NCBI GenBank assembly: GCA_902477075.1
Contig: CABSFU010000006.1
Location: 757-64,756, forward strand
Reading direction: 5' to 3'
DNA: 64,000 bases
Source: an uncultured Bacillales bacterium
Lineage (GTDB): Bacteria > Bacillota_I > Bacilli_A > RF39 > UBA660
Position 1 is the stretch's first letter; every line of letters begins with the position of its first letter. The notes beneath the pieces were generated by a model. The model was not told the origin of the DNA. It did not search any database and saw nothing but the letters and a program-made list of their open reading frames with translations. A program made the translations under genes and the position numbers. Positions 4,832 through 55,709 of this stretch are shown one piece after another.

Positions 4832-4922
4832 GGAGACGTACTCAAGAGGCTGAAGAGGCGCCCCTGCTAAGGGTGTAGGTCGGGCAACTGGCGCGAGGGT
4901 TCAAATCCCTCCGTCTCCGCCA
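4832..4922 (+). tRNA. tRNA-Ser (anticodon GCT), long variable arm, encoded CCA
   Basis: Acceptor GGAGACG/CGTCTCC, anticodon loop CTGCTAA, long variable arm (GGTGTAGGTCGGGCAACTGGCGC) and T arm GAGGGTTCAAATCCCTC. Confidence 0.9.
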
Positions 4923-16422: not shown

Positions 16423-16496
16423 GGGTCTATAGCCAAGTGGTAAGGCGTGGGACTGCAACTCCCTGATCGTTGGTTCAAATCCGACTAGGCCCTCCA
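16423..16496 (+). tRNA. tRNA-Cys (anticodon GCA), encoded CCA
   Basis: Acceptor GGGTCTA/TAGGCCC (one G-U pair), anticodon loop CTGCAAC and T-loop TTCAAAT. Confidence 0.9.
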
Positions 16497-16502
16497 AAAA
16501 AT

Positions 16503-16576
16503 GCAGGTGTGGTTCAATGGTAGAATGCGACCTTGCCAAGGTTGAGACGCGAGTCCGATTCTCGTCACTTGCTCCA
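16503..16576 (+). tRNA. tRNA-Gly (anticodon GCC), encoded CCA, non-canonical T-loop TCCGATT
   Basis: Acceptor GCAGGTG/CACTTGC, anticodon stem-loop CGACC-TTGCCAA-GGTTG and a 4-nt variable loop. Position 55 of the T-loop is C rather than T. Confidence 0.85.
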
Positions 16577-44529: not shown

Positions 44530-44689
44530 TTCTGCACCTTCCTTTCATTGATACCGAATAAAAAGCTCCCTCTAATACCTAGTGGGAGCCGAAAACTTTT
44601 TATATAAGTCCTCGGTAGGATGATTAAGCCTTAGCCCCTACTGTCTACGGTACATTCTTTCAAACACATTCATTATATCATAACATTAA
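44530..44689 (-). promoter_or_regulatory. probable L10 (rplJ) leader RNA
   Basis: 160-nt structured spacer between rplA and rplJ with GC-rich hairpins (GCTCCC...GGGAGC and CCGTAGACAGTAGGGG...CCTACCGAGG). The position matches the Bacillota L10 leader. Not folded formally. Confidence 0.4.
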
Positions 44690-47367: not shown

Positions 47368-48375
47368 TTAAAATTTTTGACCATATATGGCTTTAATATA
47401 TGGATTATTATTACAAGACTTGTAATAAGTTACTATCTTCCCATTAAAAATTAAATATCCACATTGATCATAACCATTTGGTATAGAAGATAACCATAAA
47501 GTATAATTTTCTGTTAGATTTGGAAACAATAATGCATTTGACATAACACCTGTTTCACTATTTTTGTAAGAAACTATAATTTGATCATAATTAGCATAGC
47601 TATCAGACAAATTCCAAGATTCCTTGTCAGCCGGTAATTTACTAATATTTTTTAAAACAACTATTTTTTTGGATAATAATTTATTGTTGATGGCATCAAT
47701 ATTTTTTTGATTGGTGTTTACCAAACTAGATAAGTTTTCTACATTGGTATTTGTTTTATCTAACTCACTTTGTAAAGCATAGTTATTTAAATTATTTTGT
47801 AATTCTTCGATATTACTTTTCATGTTTGTGATTTCATTTGTATTATTTGTTATTTTAGTATCTAATTCTGTTACTTTTTCATCTACTAAGTTATTTACTT
47901 CATCTTTGGAATATACATTACTAACATTCCCTGTTCCATTATCTAACATTGCTACATATTTATTTGTTAAGGCATCAAAGCCTATGATACAATTTCCAGC
48001 TTTTCTTTCTCCTATGATAATTCCACTATTATAGTTTTTATATACATAATAATTATTATTTGAGATACATATACTTGTATTTCCTTCTTTATCTAAATAG
48101 AGCTTTCCTTCTCCATCTATGGTTCCTCTATAATCTAGACTTTCTCCTTTTTTTGTACTTCCTTGATGTTCCTTATCAAACAAGAATTCATAGACTCCAT
48201 CATTTTCTATCGCATACAAATTGGCAGATTCTACTAATCCCTCTACACTAGACGCTAGTGCTTTCTTTTTACTTTCTTCGATTACATTTGTTATCATTGG
48301 TACTGTAATTAAAGTAATCACGGATAATATTACGATCACTGCTAATAGCTCTATTAATGTAAATCCTTTTTTCAT
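47368..48375 (-). CDS. prepilin-type N-terminal cleavage/methylation domain protein with central coiled coil
   Basis: The ATG at 48375 gives MKKGFTLIELLAVIVILSVI. An Asn-rich coiled-coil segment is followed by a C-terminal globular part. Confidence 0.75.
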   Translation of the reverse strand: MKKGFTLIELLAVIVILSVITLITVPMITNVIEESKKKALASSVEGLVESANLYAIENDGVYEFLFDKEHQGSTKKGESLDYRGTIDGEGKLYLDKEGNTSICISNNNYYVYKNYNSGIIIGERKAGNCIIGFDALTNKYVAMLDNGTGNVSNVYSKDEVNNLVDEKVTELDTKITNNTNEITNMKSNIEELQNNLNNYALQSELDKTNTNVENLSSLVNTNQKNIDAINNKLLSKKIVVLKNISKLPADKESWNLSDSYANYDQIIVSYKNSETGVMSNALLFPNLTENYTLWLSSIPNGYDQCGYLIFNGKIVTYYKSCNNNPYIKAIYGQKF

Positions 48376-48728
48376 GTCCTTCATCCTTCCTTTTTATAGC
48401 AACAAAAAAGAAGAGGTATTTAAAATACCCCCCCCCGTTTGCATATAGCAAACGTCAAAAATTCACTATCAACTGTAAAATATTTATTTAACATCCCGTT
48501 TTTTCAAAATCGTAAACTTAATTTTGGAAACTATGAGGGAAAGTATATTTCACACTTGTAAATCTTCTCATTTGCCATTAACAAACTATATTACTATTTT
48601 TTATTTACACGTCTAATATATCAAATTTTTTCTACAAAATCAATAATAATTATTTTATTCATTAAAACTAACATAAACATTTTAAAAAAAGTATGTTAAA
48701 ATAAGAAATACGAAGGAAGTGAAAATTT

Positions 48729-49946: not shown

Positions 49947-50064
49947 ATTATGTACTATAATAGCACTCGCTTTAAGAAAAAGCCAATCCATATTATTGAT
50001 ACAACCATTTTTAAATACCTTTCATTATTCTTACCTTTCTATTAAGTATCAATAATATAGTTAA

Positions 50065-50095
50065 AAGCCAAGTCAAAAAAGACTTGGTTTTTTTA
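50065..50095. terminator. bidirectional terminator between rarA and the Spo0A_C-repeat gene
   Basis: Stem GCCAAGTC / GACTTGG with an A6 loop, flanked by A- and T-runs. Confidence 0.6.
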
Positions 50096-51700
50096 TACTT
50101 TAATATTTTTAACTTGAACCAATAATTTATCAATTGATTTTTTAATATAAACTTTATCTTTTGCTGTATCCATTTCTTCTCTATTTTTTTCATTAATTTG
50201 ATCACATATTTTAAAAAGAAACTTTAAAGCATCAGACAATTCTATATATCTATCATGTATAGAAGAAATCTTTTCATCTACAAAACCGTATGTATGGTTT
50301 AAATAAGTGATAATCTCATCTATATTTACATTATCATATTTTGTCATTCGAAATAACATATCAATCAAAATATTCATATTTTGAATACCAAATTTAGTTT
50401 GAATTTGATAAACCTCTTCTAAATATTTTTGTAAAGTAAAATGAAAGGAATAATATAGTAAGTTAGAAGATACCACATGTCTTTTACCATCTATATCAAT
50501 TTCTTGCTTATCTACATTATCAAATGGATAATATCCTTTTATATATTCATATATAGCATATATAGCTTCCGTATTGGTAGGCCTAGTTCCACGAATAACA
50601 GGGAAAATAGCTTTTTTATCTTCCTCACTTATTCTCTTCCAAGCGGTTTCAATAGCACGGCGAATGGCTCTTTCCACCATTTTATCATCAATGCCATAAT
50701 GTTTTGCTATTGTGGGATAGATACTCTTAGTAGCCGTGAAGTTGTAAATGTTCCAATCTTCTTTTATTATTTTTGTAATAAAATACTCAATATAATGACT
50801 TCCCTTTATTCGAGAATCAAACTGTAATTTAAAATAAATGAATTGTTTTAAATACCTTTCAAACGATATCTTAGACGGAATCTCTTGATCTGTTTCATTT
50901 GTGGTATTTTTTGATTGATAAATATTATCAAACAAAAAATATTCTTTCACATATTCATATATAGTATATATAGCTTCTGTATTGGTAGGCTTAGTCCCAC
51001 GAATAACAGGAAAAATAGCTTTTTTATTTTCATCGCTTGCCTTTTTCCAAGCCGTTTCAATAGCATAATTTATAGAACTCTCTACTTGTTTTTCACTTGT
51101 GTTATAATGTTTTGCTATCATAGGATAAATATCTTTAGTAGAGCCAAAAGCATAAATATCTAAATCTTCTCTTATTATTTTTGCAATGAAATATTCTATG
51201 TAATGGCTTCCTTTTTTTCCAATATCAAATTGTAATGTCAAATAAATTAATTCTCTTAAATATTTTTCAAATGGTAATTTAGAAAGTACTACCTGTTCTG
51301 TCTTCTCATTATCAAAAGAATAATACTCTTTCACGTATTCATATATAGCATATATAGCTTTCATATTAGTTGGTCTTGTTTCACAAGCAATAGGAAAGAC
51401 AGCCTGTTTATTTTGATCACTCATTCTTTTCCAAGCTGTTTCAATAGAATGGCGAATGGATCTTTCCACCATTTTATCATTGATGTCATAATATTCCGCT
51501 ATCATAGGATAAATATCTTTAGTAACACTCAATGTATAAATGTTTAAACCTTCTTTTATAACTTTAGCAATAAAATATTCTATATAATGACTGCCCATTT
51601 GATGACTTTGAAATTGTAGTTTAGGATAAAGTAATTGATTTAAGTAAAAATCAAAAGGTAAACTAGGATCTACGATGCCTTCTTTATCAATTTTATTCAT
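50093..51700 (-). CDS. protein with three tandem Spo0A C-terminal (DNA-binding) domains and no receiver domain
   Basis: 535 aa. The segment GSHYIEYFI.K.I.E......TK.IYP.IA..Y.......VER[AS]IR.[AS]IETAWK+...PTN.[EK]AIY.IYEY occurs three times. This matches the Spo0A_C signature (..LYPDIAKK....VERAIRHAIEVAW...PTNSEFI). Confidence 0.75.
   Translation of the reverse strand: MNKIDKEGIVDPSLPFDFYLNQLLYPKLQFQSHQMGSHYIEYFIAKVIKEGLNIYTLSVTKDIYPMIAEYYDINDKMVERSIRHSIETAWKRMSDQNKQAVFPIACETRPTNMKAIYAIYEYVKEYYSFDNEKTEQVVLSKLPFEKYLRELIYLTLQFDIGKKGSHYIEYFIAKIIREDLDIYAFGSTKDIYPMIAKHYNTSEKQVESSINYAIETAWKKASDENKKAIFPVIRGTKPTNTEAIYTIYEYVKEYFLFDNIYQSKNTTNETDQEIPSKISFERYLKQFIYFKLQFDSRIKGSHYIEYFITKIIKEDWNIYNFTATKSIYPTIAKHYGIDDKMVERAIRRAIETAWKRISEEDKKAIFPVIRGTRPTNTEAIYAIYEYIKGYYPFDNVDKQEIDIDGKRHVVSSNLLYYSFHFTLQKYLEEVYQIQTKFGIQNMNILIDMLFRMTKYDNVNIDEIITYLNHTYGFVDEKISSIHDRYIELSDALKFLFKICDQINEKNREEMDTAKDKVYIKKSIDKLLVQVKNIKV
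50500..51660 (-). repeat. three tandem coding repeats of about 130 codons (Spo0A_C domains)
   Basis: Repeats are visible at protein level and partly at DNA level (for example tatatagcttccgtattggtaggcc / tatatagcttctgtattggtaggct). Coordinates are approximate. Confidence 0.7.
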
Positions 51701-51786
51701 GTTTTCACCTCGTGAAAAACATTATATTCTTATTATTTCTTTTTCTTTTGTTTTTACATTAAAGGTGTTCAAATTGTCATGAATAG

Positions 51787-52014
51787 TCATCTAAAATCAA
51801 CTAAAATAACGTCTTCCCCTATTTTTGTTATTTGATTCCATTTTATTTCCATTTCATTTGTATTAAAAAAATGTAATTTAGAACGTGAAACAATTAAAGA
51901 AATCATTTTTCCTTGTTCATCTAATAATACATCTATAATACTTCCTACTCTTTTTCCATCTGCTACATTAACAATATCTTTATTTTGTAAATCTGATAAT
52001 CGCACTATGATCAC
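51787..52014 (-). CDS. YlmC/YmxH family PRC-barrel sporulation protein
   Basis: 75 aa. LSDLQNKDIVNVADGKRVGSIIDVLLDEQGKMISLIV is the family pattern. Confidence 0.75.
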   Translation of the reverse strand: MIIVRLSDLQNKDIVNVADGKRVGSIIDVLLDEQGKMISLIVSRSKLHFFNTNEMEIKWNQITKIGEDVILVDFR

Positions 52015-52059: not shown

Positions 52060-53640
52060 TTAACATTTCTCTAAATATTCTTCATAAGTCATATGTAAAT
52101 CTTTTACGGTTCCATCCTCTTTAATATGAATAATTCGGTTAGAGGATGTTTCAATCAATTCTTGATCAAATGTTGAAACAATAAGAGCTCCTTTAAAATT
52201 TTGACAAGCTTCATTTAAAGCTGTAATAGATTCCATATCTAAATGATTGGTTGGTTCATCTAATAGTAAAACATTTCCTCCATTTAACATCAATTTTGAA
52301 AACATAGCTCTTACTTTTTCTCCACCAGATAATACTTGAATACTTTTTAAAGATTCTTCTCCAGAAAACAACATCCTACCTAAAAATCCCCTTACAAAAG
52401 CTTCTTCCTTATTGGTAGAATAATCTCTTAACCATTCAAATAAAGATTTATCTTCTTTAAAATAAGAACTGTGATCCTTTTCAAAATAACTGATTTTTAC
52501 AGTACTTCCTATTTTAATAGTACCACTATCTGGTTGAATAATACCTGCTATAATTCCTAAAAGAGCTGTTTTAGCAATTTCATTTTCTCCTATTAATGCT
52601 ATTTTAGAATCTGGATAAATTGTTAAATTAACATTTTTTAAAATGGTTTTTCCATCTACAGAATAATTAATTTTTTCTAATGAAATAACTTCTTTTCCTA
52701 AACTTTTTTCAATATCAAAATGAATATAAGGATATTTACGACTAGATGGTTTGATCTCATCTAGTGTAATTTTCTCCAAAGCTTTTTTTCTGGAAGTTGC
52801 TTGTTTAGACTTAGATGCGTTAGCAGAAAATCTTCTAATGAAATCCTCTAATTCTTTGATTTTTTCTTCCTTTTTCTTATTAGAATCTTTCATTTGTTTC
52901 AACATCAATTGACTAGATTGATACCAAAAATCATAGTTACCAATAAACATGGTAATTTTTTCATAATCAATATCAACCATATGTGTACATACGGTATTTA
53001 AAAAGTGACGATCATGGGATACAACTAAAACAGTATTCTTAAAATTCATTAAAAAGTCTTCTAGCCATAAGATGGTTTTTCCATCCAATCCATTTGTTGG
53101 TTCATCTAGTAATAAAATGTCAGGATTTCCAAATAATGCACGAGCTAGTAAAACCTTTACTTTTTCTGTATCCTTTAAATCTCCCATTTTTTGTTCTAAA
53201 TCACAATTCATCCCAAGTCCATTTAATAATTGCGCTATATCACTTTCTAACATCCAGCCGTTTTTTTCCTCAAATCGACTTTCTAATTCAGCTGCTCTAA
53301 TACCATCTTCTACACTAAAATCTGGTTTGCTATAGATTACTTCCTTCTCTTTCATAATTTGATATAATTCAGCATCACCCATAATAATGGTGTCTAAAAT
53401 AGTATATTCATTAAATTCGTTATGATTTTGTCTTAAAATGGAAATTCTTTCGTTTTTACCAATGGTAATTTCTCCTGTAGTTGTATCAATTTCACCACTA
53501 ATTAGTTTTAAAAATGTGGATTTACCAGCACCATTGGCACCAATAATACCATAACAGTTATTATCTTTAAATTCCAAATTAACATTTTGAAACAAAGTTC
53601 TAGTTCCAAATCTCAAGCTCACATTATTTACTTTTAACAT
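52060..53640 (-). CDS. ABC-F family ATPase (two ABC domains, no TM domain)
   Basis: Two Walker A / signature / Walker B sets (GANGAGKST; LSGGEKVR; LLLDEPTN) with a charged linker. The ATG at 53640 follows a GGGTGG RBS. Confidence 0.9.
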   Translation of the reverse strand: MLKVNNVSLRFGTRTLFQNVNLEFKDNNCYGIIGANGAGKSTFLKLISGEIDTTTGEITIGKNERISILRQNHNEFNEYTILDTIIMGDAELYQIMKEKEVIYSKPDFSVEDGIRAAELESRFEEKNGWMLESDIAQLLNGLGMNCDLEQKMGDLKDTEKVKVLLARALFGNPDILLLDEPTNGLDGKTILWLEDFLMNFKNTVLVVSHDRHFLNTVCTHMVDIDYEKITMFIGNYDFWYQSSQLMLKQMKDSNKKKEEKIKELEDFIRRFSANASKSKQATSRKKALEKITLDEIKPSSRKYPYIHFDIEKSLGKEVISLEKINYSVDGKTILKNVNLTIYPDSKIALIGENEIAKTALLGIIAGIIQPDSGTIKIGSTVKISYFEKDHSSYFKEDKSLFEWLRDYSTNKEEAFVRGFLGRMLFSGEESLKSIQVLSGGEKVRAMFSKLMLNGGNVLLLDEPTNHLDMESITALNEACQNFKGALIVSTFDQELIETSSNRIIHIKEDGTVKDLHMTYEEYLEKC

Positions 53641-54874
53641 AACTACCACCCTTTAATTTTTCTATATCCACAAATACAATATTTTGATCCATATCATAAT
53701 GAAAAATATCTACATCTGTATATTCTGATAATTCTGTTTTATCACAAAGTTTATTTCCTCTTGCATAAACGAAATCTTCATCATCTACATTTTGAATATA
53801 ACCTGTTTGAAAATATTTTTTAACAATTTCGTCATTTACTAAATAATAACTACCTTCACACTTAAGAAAATATAAATCATCAATAGTGTAATAGTTTTCG
53901 CCATTTACAGTTACTTTCCAATTTTCATCAAATATAATAGGATTTCCAAATAATGACTTAATTTCTTTTTTGATTGATTTATCATAACATAAATTGTCAA
54001 TTGTTTGAGATAAATCAGAAAAATTTGCTGTTTCTTCCTGATTATGATACATATTCGATAGAATTTCATAAATATCTAAAGGACTATTTAGCTGTTTTTT
54101 CCATTCATCATTCATAAGTTGAATGAACTGACAAGCATTTTCGTATCCGACACTATTACTTAAAAAAAGTTCTACTCCTTCTACTCCTGAATCTAAATAA
54201 CTTTTAATAAAGTCATCTCCATAAATATCATAAAGAATAGAAATTTCATCATATTGTTTGGTGTATCCCTGAATATCGGAAGTAAAAAGTTGTTCTGTTA
54301 AAAAGGTTGTCATTCCTTCATCAAATGCAGTTCCTTTGCTTTCATACATGCTAGGTGATTTGTAATATACGTTATTATGATCTTTGATATACAAATTGTT
54401 AAACATATGCCATAGCTCATGGAAATAGCAATATTTTTTATTTTCTATCGTCTTATATTCATCATGCATGTAAATGGTTGCTGTCGGAATATGATAGTAA
54501 GATTCTCTATTTTTATTTTTCATCATATCCTTTTTAGTGATCTCTTTTACTTCAAATATTTTTAAGTTTTCATTAAAAACCGTTAAATCGATATCAGGAT
54601 ATTTTTCTTCTAACAAATCTATAAATTCATTCGTATAAGCTCTATATTCATCGTTAATATTCGCGTTGCTTTTTAAAGCTGTTCTAATTGTGTGGAATGT
54701 TACTTGAACTGGAAAAAATTGTTTTAATTCTTCAATAGAATCTACCCATTCATATACCGTTCTTACCTCATAGGCCTCGACTTCATTTTTTCCAAACGGA
54801 TTTTGTATCAATACTGTTGGTATCATCGCAAATAGGCATATTTTTTTATAGATCTTTTTCATTTTATATTTCAT
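53624..54874 (-). CDS. secreted or lipid-anchored hypothetical protein with an HExxH motif (CYFHELWHMF)
   Basis: N-terminal signal-like segment (KKICLFAMIPTVLIQNPFG) and a single zinc-metalloprotease-like HExxH. The 3' end overlaps the ABC-F start by 17 nt. Confidence 0.6.
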   Translation of the reverse strand: MKYKMKKIYKKICLFAMIPTVLIQNPFGKNEVEAYEVRTVYEWVDSIEELKQFFPVQVTFHTIRTALKSNANINDEYRAYTNEFIDLLEEKYPDIDLTVFNENLKIFEVKEITKKDMMKNKNRESYYHIPTATIYMHDEYKTIENKKYCYFHELWHMFNNLYIKDHNNVYYKSPSMYESKGTAFDEGMTTFLTEQLFTSDIQGYTKQYDEISILYDIYGDDFIKSYLDSGVEGVELFLSNSVGYENACQFIQLMNDEWKKQLNSPLDIYEILSNMYHNQEETANFSDLSQTIDNLCYDKSIKKEIKSLFGNPIIFDENWKVTVNGENYYTIDDLYFLKCEGSYYLVNDEIVKKYFQTGYIQNVDDEDFVYARGNKLCDKTELSEYTDVDIFHYDMDQNIVFVDIEKLKGGSYVKSK

Positions 54875-54932: not shown

Positions 54933-55709
54933 TTATTTAATTTTTTTCTTAATATGATCAATACCACTTTTTTCTAAACGGGATATTTGAGCTTGCGAAA
55001 TACCAATTTCATCAGCTAGTTCTAGTTGTGTTTTACCCATAATATATCTTTCATAAATAATGTATTTTTCTTTTTGCTTTAATTCTTTTAAAGCTTCTTT
55101 CAAGGCAATTCGATATTCTAAGGGATAGATACTATCTTTTTTATCTTCTAATTGGTCTACTAAGTAGATAGTATCTCCACCATCATTATAAATAGGTTCA
55201 AACATACTCACAACTTCCTTCATAGAATTGATGGCATTCTGAACTTCTATTTCTTCTTTATCAAGTGCTTCTGCAACTTGCTTCATGGTAGGTTCAATAC
55301 CTAACTTACTAGTTAATTCTTCCTTCATTTTTAAAGCTTTATAAGCAGTATCTTTTGTACTACGGGCAACCCTAATACTATTATTATCTCTTAAAAAGCG
55401 TTTTACTTCTCCAATAATCAAAGGACAAGCATAAGTGCTTAATTTTAAATTATAAGATAAATCAAAATTATCAATTGCCTTTATTAAACCAATAACTCCA
55501 ACTTGAAATAAATCATCCATATTATCCGTTCTCCCTGTAAAATTTTTTAAAACAGATAATACTAGTTTTAAATTACCACTTACTAACTTATCTTTAGCAG
55601 TTAAATCGCCTTTTTGATATTGTTCAAATAATATTATCATTTCTTCATTAGTTAATACAGGTATATTAGATGTATTAATCCCACTGATATCTACTTTATG
55701 TTTTGCCAT
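54933..55709 (-). CDS. sigG: sporulation sigma factor SigG-like (sigma-70 group 3)
   Basis: Collinear with Bacillus SigG: KV.I.G..TS..PVL.NEEM, GNL+LVLSV, DDLFQVG.IGL.K.IDNFDL, FEPIYNDGGD.IY and ISQAQ.SRLEK. Confidence 0.8.
   Translation of the reverse strand: MAKHKVDISGINTSNIPVLTNEEMIILFEQYQKGDLTAKDKLVSGNLKLVLSVLKNFTGRTDNMDDLFQVGVIGLIKAIDNFDLSYNLKLSTYACPLIIGEVKRFLRDNNSIRVARSTKDTAYKALKMKEELTSKLGIEPTMKQVAEALDKEEIEVQNAINSMKEVVSMFEPIYNDGGDTIYLVDQLEDKKDSIYPLEYRIALKEALKELKQKEKYIIYERYIMGKTQLELADEIGISQAQISRLEKSGIDHIKKKIK

Follow-up and report, generated by a model that had tools for sequence, protein, structure and literature searches.

What might a protein do that carries the DNA-binding effector domain of Spo0A three times and lacks the phospho-receiver? 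The question is raised by a gene at 50093..51700 on the minus strand of a 64-kb stretch of DNA from an uncultured Bacillales bacterium (GenBank assembly GCA_902477075.1, contig CABSFU010000006.1), the whole of which is called the window here. Spo0A is usually treated as a single-copy protein with one receiver and one effector domain, set by phosphorylation; here the effector is freed, multiplied and fixed at a sporulation locus. The gene product is a chromosomal, receiver-less paralogue of the Spo0A effector domain in three tandem copies, fused to a family-specific C-terminal domain (CTD), and the gene always stands after ylmC. It is a real gene, neither a mobile element nor an artefact.

Architecture of the protein

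The open reading frame (ORF) of 535 amino acids (aa) is uninterrupted, with an ATG start and the ribosome-binding site GAGGTGA. Three tandem Spo0A DNA-binding domains, no phospho-receiver and an unrelated C-terminal region had been read from it in an earlier note made from the sequence alone, and this architecture is confirmed. PF08769 (Spo0A_C) was matched in three stretches by Pfam (E 4.1e-53, 178 bits against a gathering cut-off of 25). Response_reg (PF00072) gave no match in the protein even at E<=1, and only about 12-19 residues lie ahead of the first Spo0A_C domain. The parts of the gene are as follows.

50093..51700, minus strand: whole gene, encoding a 535-aa protein with three Spo0A_C domains and a CTD, without receiver (ORF and Pfam)
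51320..51664, minus strand: repeat 1, Spo0A_C, aa 13-127; recognition helix VERSIRHSIE at 51440-51469
51281..51319, minus strand: linker 1, aa 128-140 (13 aa), acidic, low-confidence in the model
50936..51280, minus strand: repeat 2, Spo0A_C fold, aa 141-255; degenerate recognition helix VESSINYAIE at 51056-51085
50873..50935, minus strand: linker 2, aa 256-276 (21 aa), acidic, low-confidence in the model
50528..50872, minus strand: repeat 3, Spo0A_C, aa 277-391; recognition helix VERAIRRAIE at 50648-50677
50096..50527, minus strand: CTD, aa 392-535 (144 aa), the hallmark of the family

The only significant PDB sequence matches of the protein were the Spo0A effector domains 1FC3 and 1LQ1. Single domains of the whole-protein AlphaFold2 model were compared with these structures using Foldseek. 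On the Spo0A-DNA complex 1LQ1 they gave a template modelling score (TM) of 0.84-0.86 and a root-mean-square deviation (rmsd) of 1.9-2.8 Å; for 1LQ1 and 1FC3 together the ranges were 0.75-0.86 and 1.9-3.3 Å. With a profile score above the gathering cut-off and the six-helix Spo0A effector fold, the protein belongs to the Spo0A_C family. It is not a canonical Spo0A, having no receiver with a phospho-acceptor Asp and scoring only 123 bits against the curated cut-off of 200 for the NCBIfam equivalog TIGR02875, of which model positions 140-252 alone align.

GSHYIEYFI begins at aa 36, 164 and 300 and PTN at aa 110, 238 and 374, with repeat periods of 128 and 136 aa in the protein and 384 and 408 nucleotides (nt) in the DNA. 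The three repeats are 72-77% identical in DNA and 60-67% in protein, and the longest exact stretch shared between them is 27 nt. Between repeats the synonymous divergence (dS) is 0.68-0.98 and the ratio of non-synonymous to synonymous divergence (dN/dS) is 0.25-0.35, being 0.25 for repeat 2 against the others. The copies are therefore old and each is constrained; every repeat is under purifying selection. The motifs listed in the earlier note hold, with two exceptions. GSHYIEYFI, TKxIYP and PTN stand in all three repeats, while repeat 2 has VESSINYAIE in place of VER[AS]IR and repeat 1 reads PTNMKAIY in place of PTNxEAIY.

The DNA-reading residues of the repeats were compared with 188 other aligned Spo0A_C domains and with the B. 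subtilis sequence from 1LQ1. In the recognition helix, E213, R214 and R217 were present in 86%, 78% and 85% of the 188 domains, respectively. Given this conservation, we take the three residues to be the base contacts, as reportedly seen in 1LQ1 (Zhao et al. 2002); a literature search for Arg214/Arg217 gave no relevant result. Specific contacts to G2, C4 and G5 of TGTCGAA have been described (PMC3485338). The Glu-Arg-Arg (E-R-R) triad persists in repeats 1 and 3, as it does in most relatives. Repeat 2 reads E-S-N, both arginines being gone, and in the related three-domain protein P0007 the orthologous repeat 2 reads E-S-H and repeat 3 reads E-G-R. TKxIYP, W224 and PTN are kept in all three repeats of the window protein. 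Repeat 3 is the most basic one, with an isoelectric point (pI) of 9.5, and is as basic as the B. subtilis domain; the pI is 8.0 for repeat 2 and 6.9 for the whole protein.

The protein thus resembles canonical Spo0A (TIGR02875; 1FC3, 1LQ1) in the effector fold of each repeat, in the motifs that repeats 1 and 3 retain (TKxIYPxIA, VERxIRxxIE, W and PTN), and in belonging to an apparently spore-forming organism, with its gene placed among sporulation genes. It differs in having no receiver and hence no phospho-switch, in its three effector domains instead of one, in the extra 144-aa CTD, in the loss from repeat 2 of the arginines held to contact bases and in a sigma-A-activating region that is not conserved.

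Family alignments show the CTD to be conserved across all family members, and it was without a match in Pfam, NCBIfam or the PDB sequences. When modelled alone with AlphaFold2 it had a predicted local distance difference test score (pLDDT) of 70.5, giving two beta-hairpins and five helices at moderate confidence, and this model found no significant fold match in the PDB. A fourth, degenerate Spo0A_C domain is unsupported as an explanation of the CTD: an hhalign comparison with Spo0A_C gave a probability of 1%, in line with the missing PDB matches of sequence and fold. A search of BFVD returned, as the match of highest probability (0.87), a phage "Stage 0 sporulation protein A"-like protein, with TM 0.43/0.53 and E 0.21. 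We regard this likeness between a model and a phage protein as a weak, unproven hint.

The family and its place after ylmC

Nine clusters of the family were all that a word-indexed search gave among 5.8 billion proteins; an exhaustive search of representatives added a few more distant members. We define the ylmC-linked Spo0A_C-CTD family by two traits. One is at least one Spo0A_C domain of the GSHY/IFP/PTNxEAIY subtype followed by a CTD of ~140 aa, and the other is a gene directly downstream of ylmC on the same strand. The window protein has both. The members carry one to three Spo0A_C domains.

Three domains: the window protein; P0007 (70% identical)
Two domains: P0002-P0006 (window species, two different junctions); P0009 (36%)
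One domain: P0158, P0159, P0160 (the ORF of contig L001), P0010, P0013 and P0078 (the last more distant)

The same protein, 100% identical, is encoded on the independent Logan contig L005. The 90% cluster of the window protein has 63 members, including the NCBI entry MCI5552251.1, and proteins of 535 aa recur on dozens of contigs that are independent of one another. When the repeats are placed in a neighbour-joining tree, every window repeat pairs with its counterpart in P0007. These six repeats group in a single clade, to which the single-domain proteins do not belong, and the repeats of P0009 pair together. By this grouping the ancestor had one Spo0A_C domain and the CTD, and the triplication is older than the split of the window species from the P0007 species; it is both lineage-specific and old. 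Since the P0009 repeats pair with each other, there were at least two independent amplifications. The independent duplication in P0009 suggests that extra heads are advantageous.

Copy number probably also varies within the species. A strain whose flanks are 99.3% identical to the window (L004) has a clean in-frame deletion of 408 nt, by which repeats 2 and 3 are fused, with the breakpoint inside a 36-nt zone of near-identity. Collapse by the assembler seems an unlikely cause, because exact matches between the repeats are short.

The surroundings of the gene were examined in the window and on the contigs of its relatives. The nearby features, of which ylmC/ymxH and sigG had rightly been pointed out as neighbours in the earlier note, are these.

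54933-55709: sigG, a neighbour
51787..52014, minus strand: gene of the ylmC/ymxH family, PRC-barrel sporulation gene (TIGR02888, E 1e-21)
51701..51786, minus strand: spacer of 86 bp between ylmC and the gene, with the ribosome-binding site GAGGTGA at 51705-51711
51756-51783, minus strand: spacer block TTCATGACAATTTGAACACCTTTAATGT, just past the ylmC stop codon, partly conserved in L001
51721-51726, minus strand: TATAAT box in the spacer, ~24 nt before the start, with no -35 element
50063..50092: terminator hairpin, bidirectional, which also serves the convergent rarA and closes the transcription unit

The surrounding DNA belongs to the core chromosome and holds rpoB, rpoC, rplA, nusG, proS, two penicillin-binding proteins (PBPs) including SpoVD, sigG, an ABC-F ATPase, ylmC/ymxH and the convergent rarA. 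From upstream to downstream the order is sigG, a gene for a 416-aa protein, ABC-F, ylmC, the triple-Spo0A_C gene and convergent rarA. The order ABC-F, ylmC, gene, convergent rarA is kept wherever these flanks occur on a contig, i.e. on L001 and L006 (both with one domain), L004, L005, L020 (P0009) and L021/L022 (P0013, 29% identical), the last having an inserted YlmH-like gene. Wherever a relative's surroundings could be read, down to 29% identity, the family gene comes immediately after ylmC. Family contigs have a guanine-cytosine (GC) content of 22-28%. In a comparison anchored on SigG, relatives at 70-75% SigG identity (L017, L018, L019) keep sigG and ylmC and have no Spo0A_C gene there; the arrangement on L019 is ftsAZ-spoIIGA-sigE-sigG-ylmC. 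The gene is therefore a clade-specific addition that has been attached to ylmC since, and is not cargo of a mobile element.

No terminator was found between ylmC and the triple-Spo0A_C gene. The spacers of L001 and L020 also have a TATAAT box; the spacer of L022 is much shorter and without evident promoter, and co-transcription with ylmC is favoured for that reason. The timing of expression is something we infer. In C. perfringens ylmC is specific to sporulation and requires Spo0A and sigma-E; in B. subtilis it is controlled by sigma-E (PMC9332280). As a separate observation, the ylmC-gene spacers of L020 (1096-1192) and L021 (5302-5397) have a repeated (G/C)TTTATAAC motif, a candidate operator. 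It occurs twice in L020, ~21 nt apart, and has no clear counterpart in the window spacer.

Possible roles of the protein

The pairing with ylmC, the range of one to three domains, the CTD as a hallmark and the wide occurrence of receiver-less Spo0A_C proteins, tandem arrays included, had all escaped the earlier note. Receiver-less or truncated spo0A homologues are known from gut phages, where they have been proposed to manipulate sporulation (Schwartz et al. 2023, bioRxiv 10.1101/2023.01.19.524802), and PF08769 is over-represented among the mobile elements of gut Firmicutes (Jiang et al. 2019, PMC6907783). We found Spo0A_C-like proteins on viral contigs of IMG/VR (at least 90) and on phage contigs of GenBank (9). 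Among the 80 IMG/VR loci kept for a census, all 80 proteins were single-domain, 57 lacked an N-terminal extension of receiver length (fewer than 60 aa), none was found to have the CTD, and identity to the window protein was at most 46% over domain-length matches. Two PHROG families match, both of unknown function. No close homologue of the window protein was found in phage or plasmid records. The earlier note had named membership of a phage or plasmid repressor family of known function as something that would refute its reading; this identity was rejected, as the phage matches (32-36% identity) are all to gut phage contigs without annotation and the plasmid matches annotated under the matched stretch are canonical spo0A. 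The phage and mobile-element proteins share with the window protein a Spo0A_C domain without receiver, an occurrence in gut Firmicutes and a presumed independence of the phosphorelay. They are single-domain and mobile, whereas the window gene has three domains and a CTD at a fixed chromosomal locus by ylmC.

Tandem arrays of Spo0A_C were also found outside the family. In the best 150 representative clusters, 31 proteins have at least two Spo0A_C domains, 12 have at least three and one has six. When 37 of these proteins, 32 with more than one such domain, were scanned with Pfam, a receiver turned up in one. Receiver-less metagenome arrays include P0012 and P0015 with four domains, P0014 and P0018 with three and P0077 with six. 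They resemble the window protein in their head-to-tail Spo0A_C domains without receiver, but their repeats are of the canonical type (LGIPxxxKGYxYL...LFG...PTNSEFIA), they end after the last repeat without a CTD, and at 24-40% identity they form a separate lineage. Receiver-less single-domain Spo0A homologues have thus been reported already; for tandem arrays and for the ylmC-linked CTD family we found no description in a literature search.

Some other arrangements were seen in passing. P0042 is an apparent fusion of two complete Spo0A units, receiver-effector-receiver-effector by sequence reading (the Pfam scan gave Response_reg in 1 of 37), and P0064 seems to consist of one receiver and, after it, two effector domains. 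L011 (30-1176) encodes a Spo0A_C protein of 267 aa; Pfam sees no receiver in its N-terminal half, which may be a pseudo-receiver. A PRC-barrel (YlmC-like) gene comes next, so that Spo0A_C and PRC stand side by side a second time, independently, in an organism of 42% GC. L003 (5246-6284), from the metagenome-assembled genome (MAG) of an uncultured Clostridiaceae, has two short neighbouring ORFs (125 and 168 aa), each a stand-alone Spo0A_C.

Canonical spo0A was not found in the 64-kb window or in the fetched clade loci, a small part of the genome. Five proteins picked by AT-rich composition as candidates for the organism's spo0A (P0028, P0038, P0157, P0137 and P0043) turned out to lie on other organisms' contigs, with 33-42% GC where measured. 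Genomes of spore-formers that have been surveyed carry one, rarely two or three, canonical spo0A genes (bioRxiv 10.1101/2022.02.25.481979). On L012 (1651-2565) a canonical spo0A (receiver and Spo0A_C, 257 aa) lies directly downstream of an ABC-F gene whose product is 53% identical to that of the window, and two tandem TTCGAC(A) 0A boxes, 11 bp apart, stand upstream of it. This likeness of position to the window may be coincidence. Change in place from a canonical spo0A, an idea prompted by L012, is unsupported, the relatives at 70-75% SigG identity having no Spo0A_C gene at that site.

We give about an even chance to the reading, the most likely one, that the protein is a phosphorylation-independent, multi-headed DNA-binding regulator tied to sporulation. 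With no receiver to restrain the effector domain, DNA would be bound without phosphorylation. The isolated Spo0A DNA-binding domain binds its legitimate targets unphosphorylated (PMC3485338), which makes phosphorelay-independent binding a reasonable expectation. The interpretation in the earlier note, of a protein that might bind arrays of 0A-like boxes in this way as activator, competitor or decoy, is thereby supported in part. The analogy with such receiver-deleted constructs is functional, in that a freed effector binds 0A boxes without phosphorylation; the constructs are laboratory-made and have one domain, whereas the window protein is natural, multi-domain and has a further domain of its own. 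Repeats 1 and 3, with Glu-Arg-Arg kept, would be the two heads that read the sequence of 0A-box-like sites. In repeat 2 the arginines are gone while selection persists, so it may be a structured spacer or protein-contact module between the heads. The CTD may stand in for the receiver, providing oligomerisation or regulatory input. Because the gene is paired with ylmC, a role within the sporulation programme is suggested, probably after entry, in modulating Spo0A-type promoters.

Several results weigh against such a regulator. The 64-kb window has a single exact TGTCGAA where 3.2 would be expected and 9 occurrences of TGNCGAA where 11.5 would be, and no three or more one-mismatch TGTCGAA-like boxes were found clustered. 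Local arrays of 0A boxes, for which the earlier note had proposed a search, are thus rejected for the window, there being neither enrichment nor clustering. Each repeat departs from canonical Spo0A at positions 207-211, where the recognition helix begins, and G227 and LFG give way to M/A/I and IFP across the three. In canonical Spo0A the region G227...LFG contacts sigma-A and is known as the sigma-A-activating region. Both specificity and activating ability may therefore differ. Repeat 1, with a pI of 6.8, is neutral rather than basic. The upstream TATAAT box could allow expression independent of ylmC, even vegetative expression. The role given to the CTD is pure conjecture, because its model has a pLDDT of ~70 and no fold match.

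Some of these points fit other explanations. An antagonist or decoy would occupy 0A boxes without productive contact to RNA polymerase, or titrate a Spo0A partner, and so damp or delay Spo0A-dependent transcription. The altered sigma-A-activating region, the recognition triad retained in two repeats and the proposal that truncated phage Spo0A manipulates sporulation (bioRxiv 10.1101/2023.01.19.524802) agree with this, but a decoy has no obvious need for three domains, a conserved CTD or strict ylmC linkage across deep divergence. We consider it rather unlikely, and it is a sub-case of the multi-headed regulator, from which it differs in the sign of regulation only. Another possibility is that canonical Spo0A and the phosphorelay have been lost and that the Spo0A_C-CTD protein, with the CTD as input, is the lineage's own master regulator and initiates sporulation. 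No canonical spo0A was seen in the window or the clade loci, the family is a conserved single-locus gene in the clade, and the ancestral form with one Spo0A_C and the CTD has the domain count of a response regulator. The loci cover only a small part of the genome, however, and canonical Spo0A is present in every known spore-former surveyed (bioRxiv 10.1101/2022.02.25.481979). The relatives without the gene point to a recent addition, not a transformed spo0A, and the linkage to ylmC suggests action after initiation; a master regulator is accordingly judged improbable.

The gene could also be a domesticated mobile-element or phage gene that serves the biology of the element (superinfection control, defence) and not host sporulation. 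The enrichment of PF08769 in gut Firmicutes mobile elements (PMC6907783), the viral homologues without receiver-length N-terminus and the two PHROG families speak for such an origin, but no integrase or phage genes are adjacent, the nearest mobile element is ~26 kb off, the synteny with housekeeping and sporulation genes is kept across species, and all 80 viral homologues are single-domain and at most 46% identical, with no CTD found in any. It is likewise improbable. In a non-DNA-binding scaffold, the Spo0A_C folds would be reused for contacts with sigma factors, RNA polymerase or YlmC. The conservation of repeat 2 despite the loss of both arginines, the neutral repeat 1 and whole-protein pI and the strict ylmC linkage would suit this; E-R-R, TKxIYP and PTN are nevertheless retained in repeats 1 and 3 and in most single-domain relatives, and repeat 3 matches the B. 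subtilis domain in basicity, so a scaffold is very improbable. An assembly artefact or decaying pseudogene is hardly credible. The one- and two-domain variants in near-identical strains could hint at mis-assembly of repeats, but the 535-aa form was assembled many times independently, the repeats are only 72-77% identical, with exact matches of no more than 27 nt, and the frame is intact under purifying selection.

In this very low-GC clade of spore-formers the protein might even be a second, phosphorelay-independent Spo0A-type developmental switch or a replacement of Spo0A, whose number of heads (one to three) is reset between strains by recombination of the repeats and tunes promoter occupancy and sporulation propensity. 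This reading is distinctly unlikely. Metagenomes commonly hold receiver-less arrays, with as many as six domains, and these multi-headed Spo0A-domain proteins are a class so far unexplored. If such arrays bind 0A-type sites, they would be a hidden layer of sporulation control with bearing on the persistence and transmission of gut Firmicutes, and a natural case in which the valency of a transcription factor is changed by domain amplification. The gene pair is also a testable lead to the function of YlmC/YmxH.

Other features of the window and the lineage

Besides sigG and ylmC, the genome encodes SpoVD and a second PBP, while spoIIGA-sigE, spoIIP and spoIIID occur in relatives. The MAG from which MCI5552251.1 derives is labelled Mycoplasmatota by NCBI, and close relatives are labelled Bacilli or Mollicutes. 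A lineage that looks walled and apparently spore-forming, at 22-28% GC, thus stands under the name of a wall-less phylum.

Between sigG and ABC-F, the gene at 53624-54874 (minus strand) encodes the 416-aa protein, which has no Pfam or NCBIfam match and is conserved in L001, L004 and L005. It has a hydrophobic N-terminus and HELWH (HExxH) at aa 152, its gene overlaps the ABC-F start by 26 nt, and the protein is possibly a metalloprotease that is secreted. Two unusually long proteins (338 and 391 aa) with a prepilin-type N-terminal cleavage/methylation motif are encoded at 47368-48384 and 60076-61251 (both minus strand), among housekeeping and sporulation genes, and are present in L004 too.

At 21502-24537 (plus strand), ~26 kb from the triple-Spo0A_C gene, a serine recombinase (Resolvase and Recombinase), an unknown 342-aa ORF and a Mob_Pre relaxase stand together; the three have the look of a mobilisable element, small and integrated. 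A ribosomal protein L10 leader at 44550-44668 (minus strand) and three tRNA genes at 4832-4919 and 16423-16573 (plus strand) are ordinary features.

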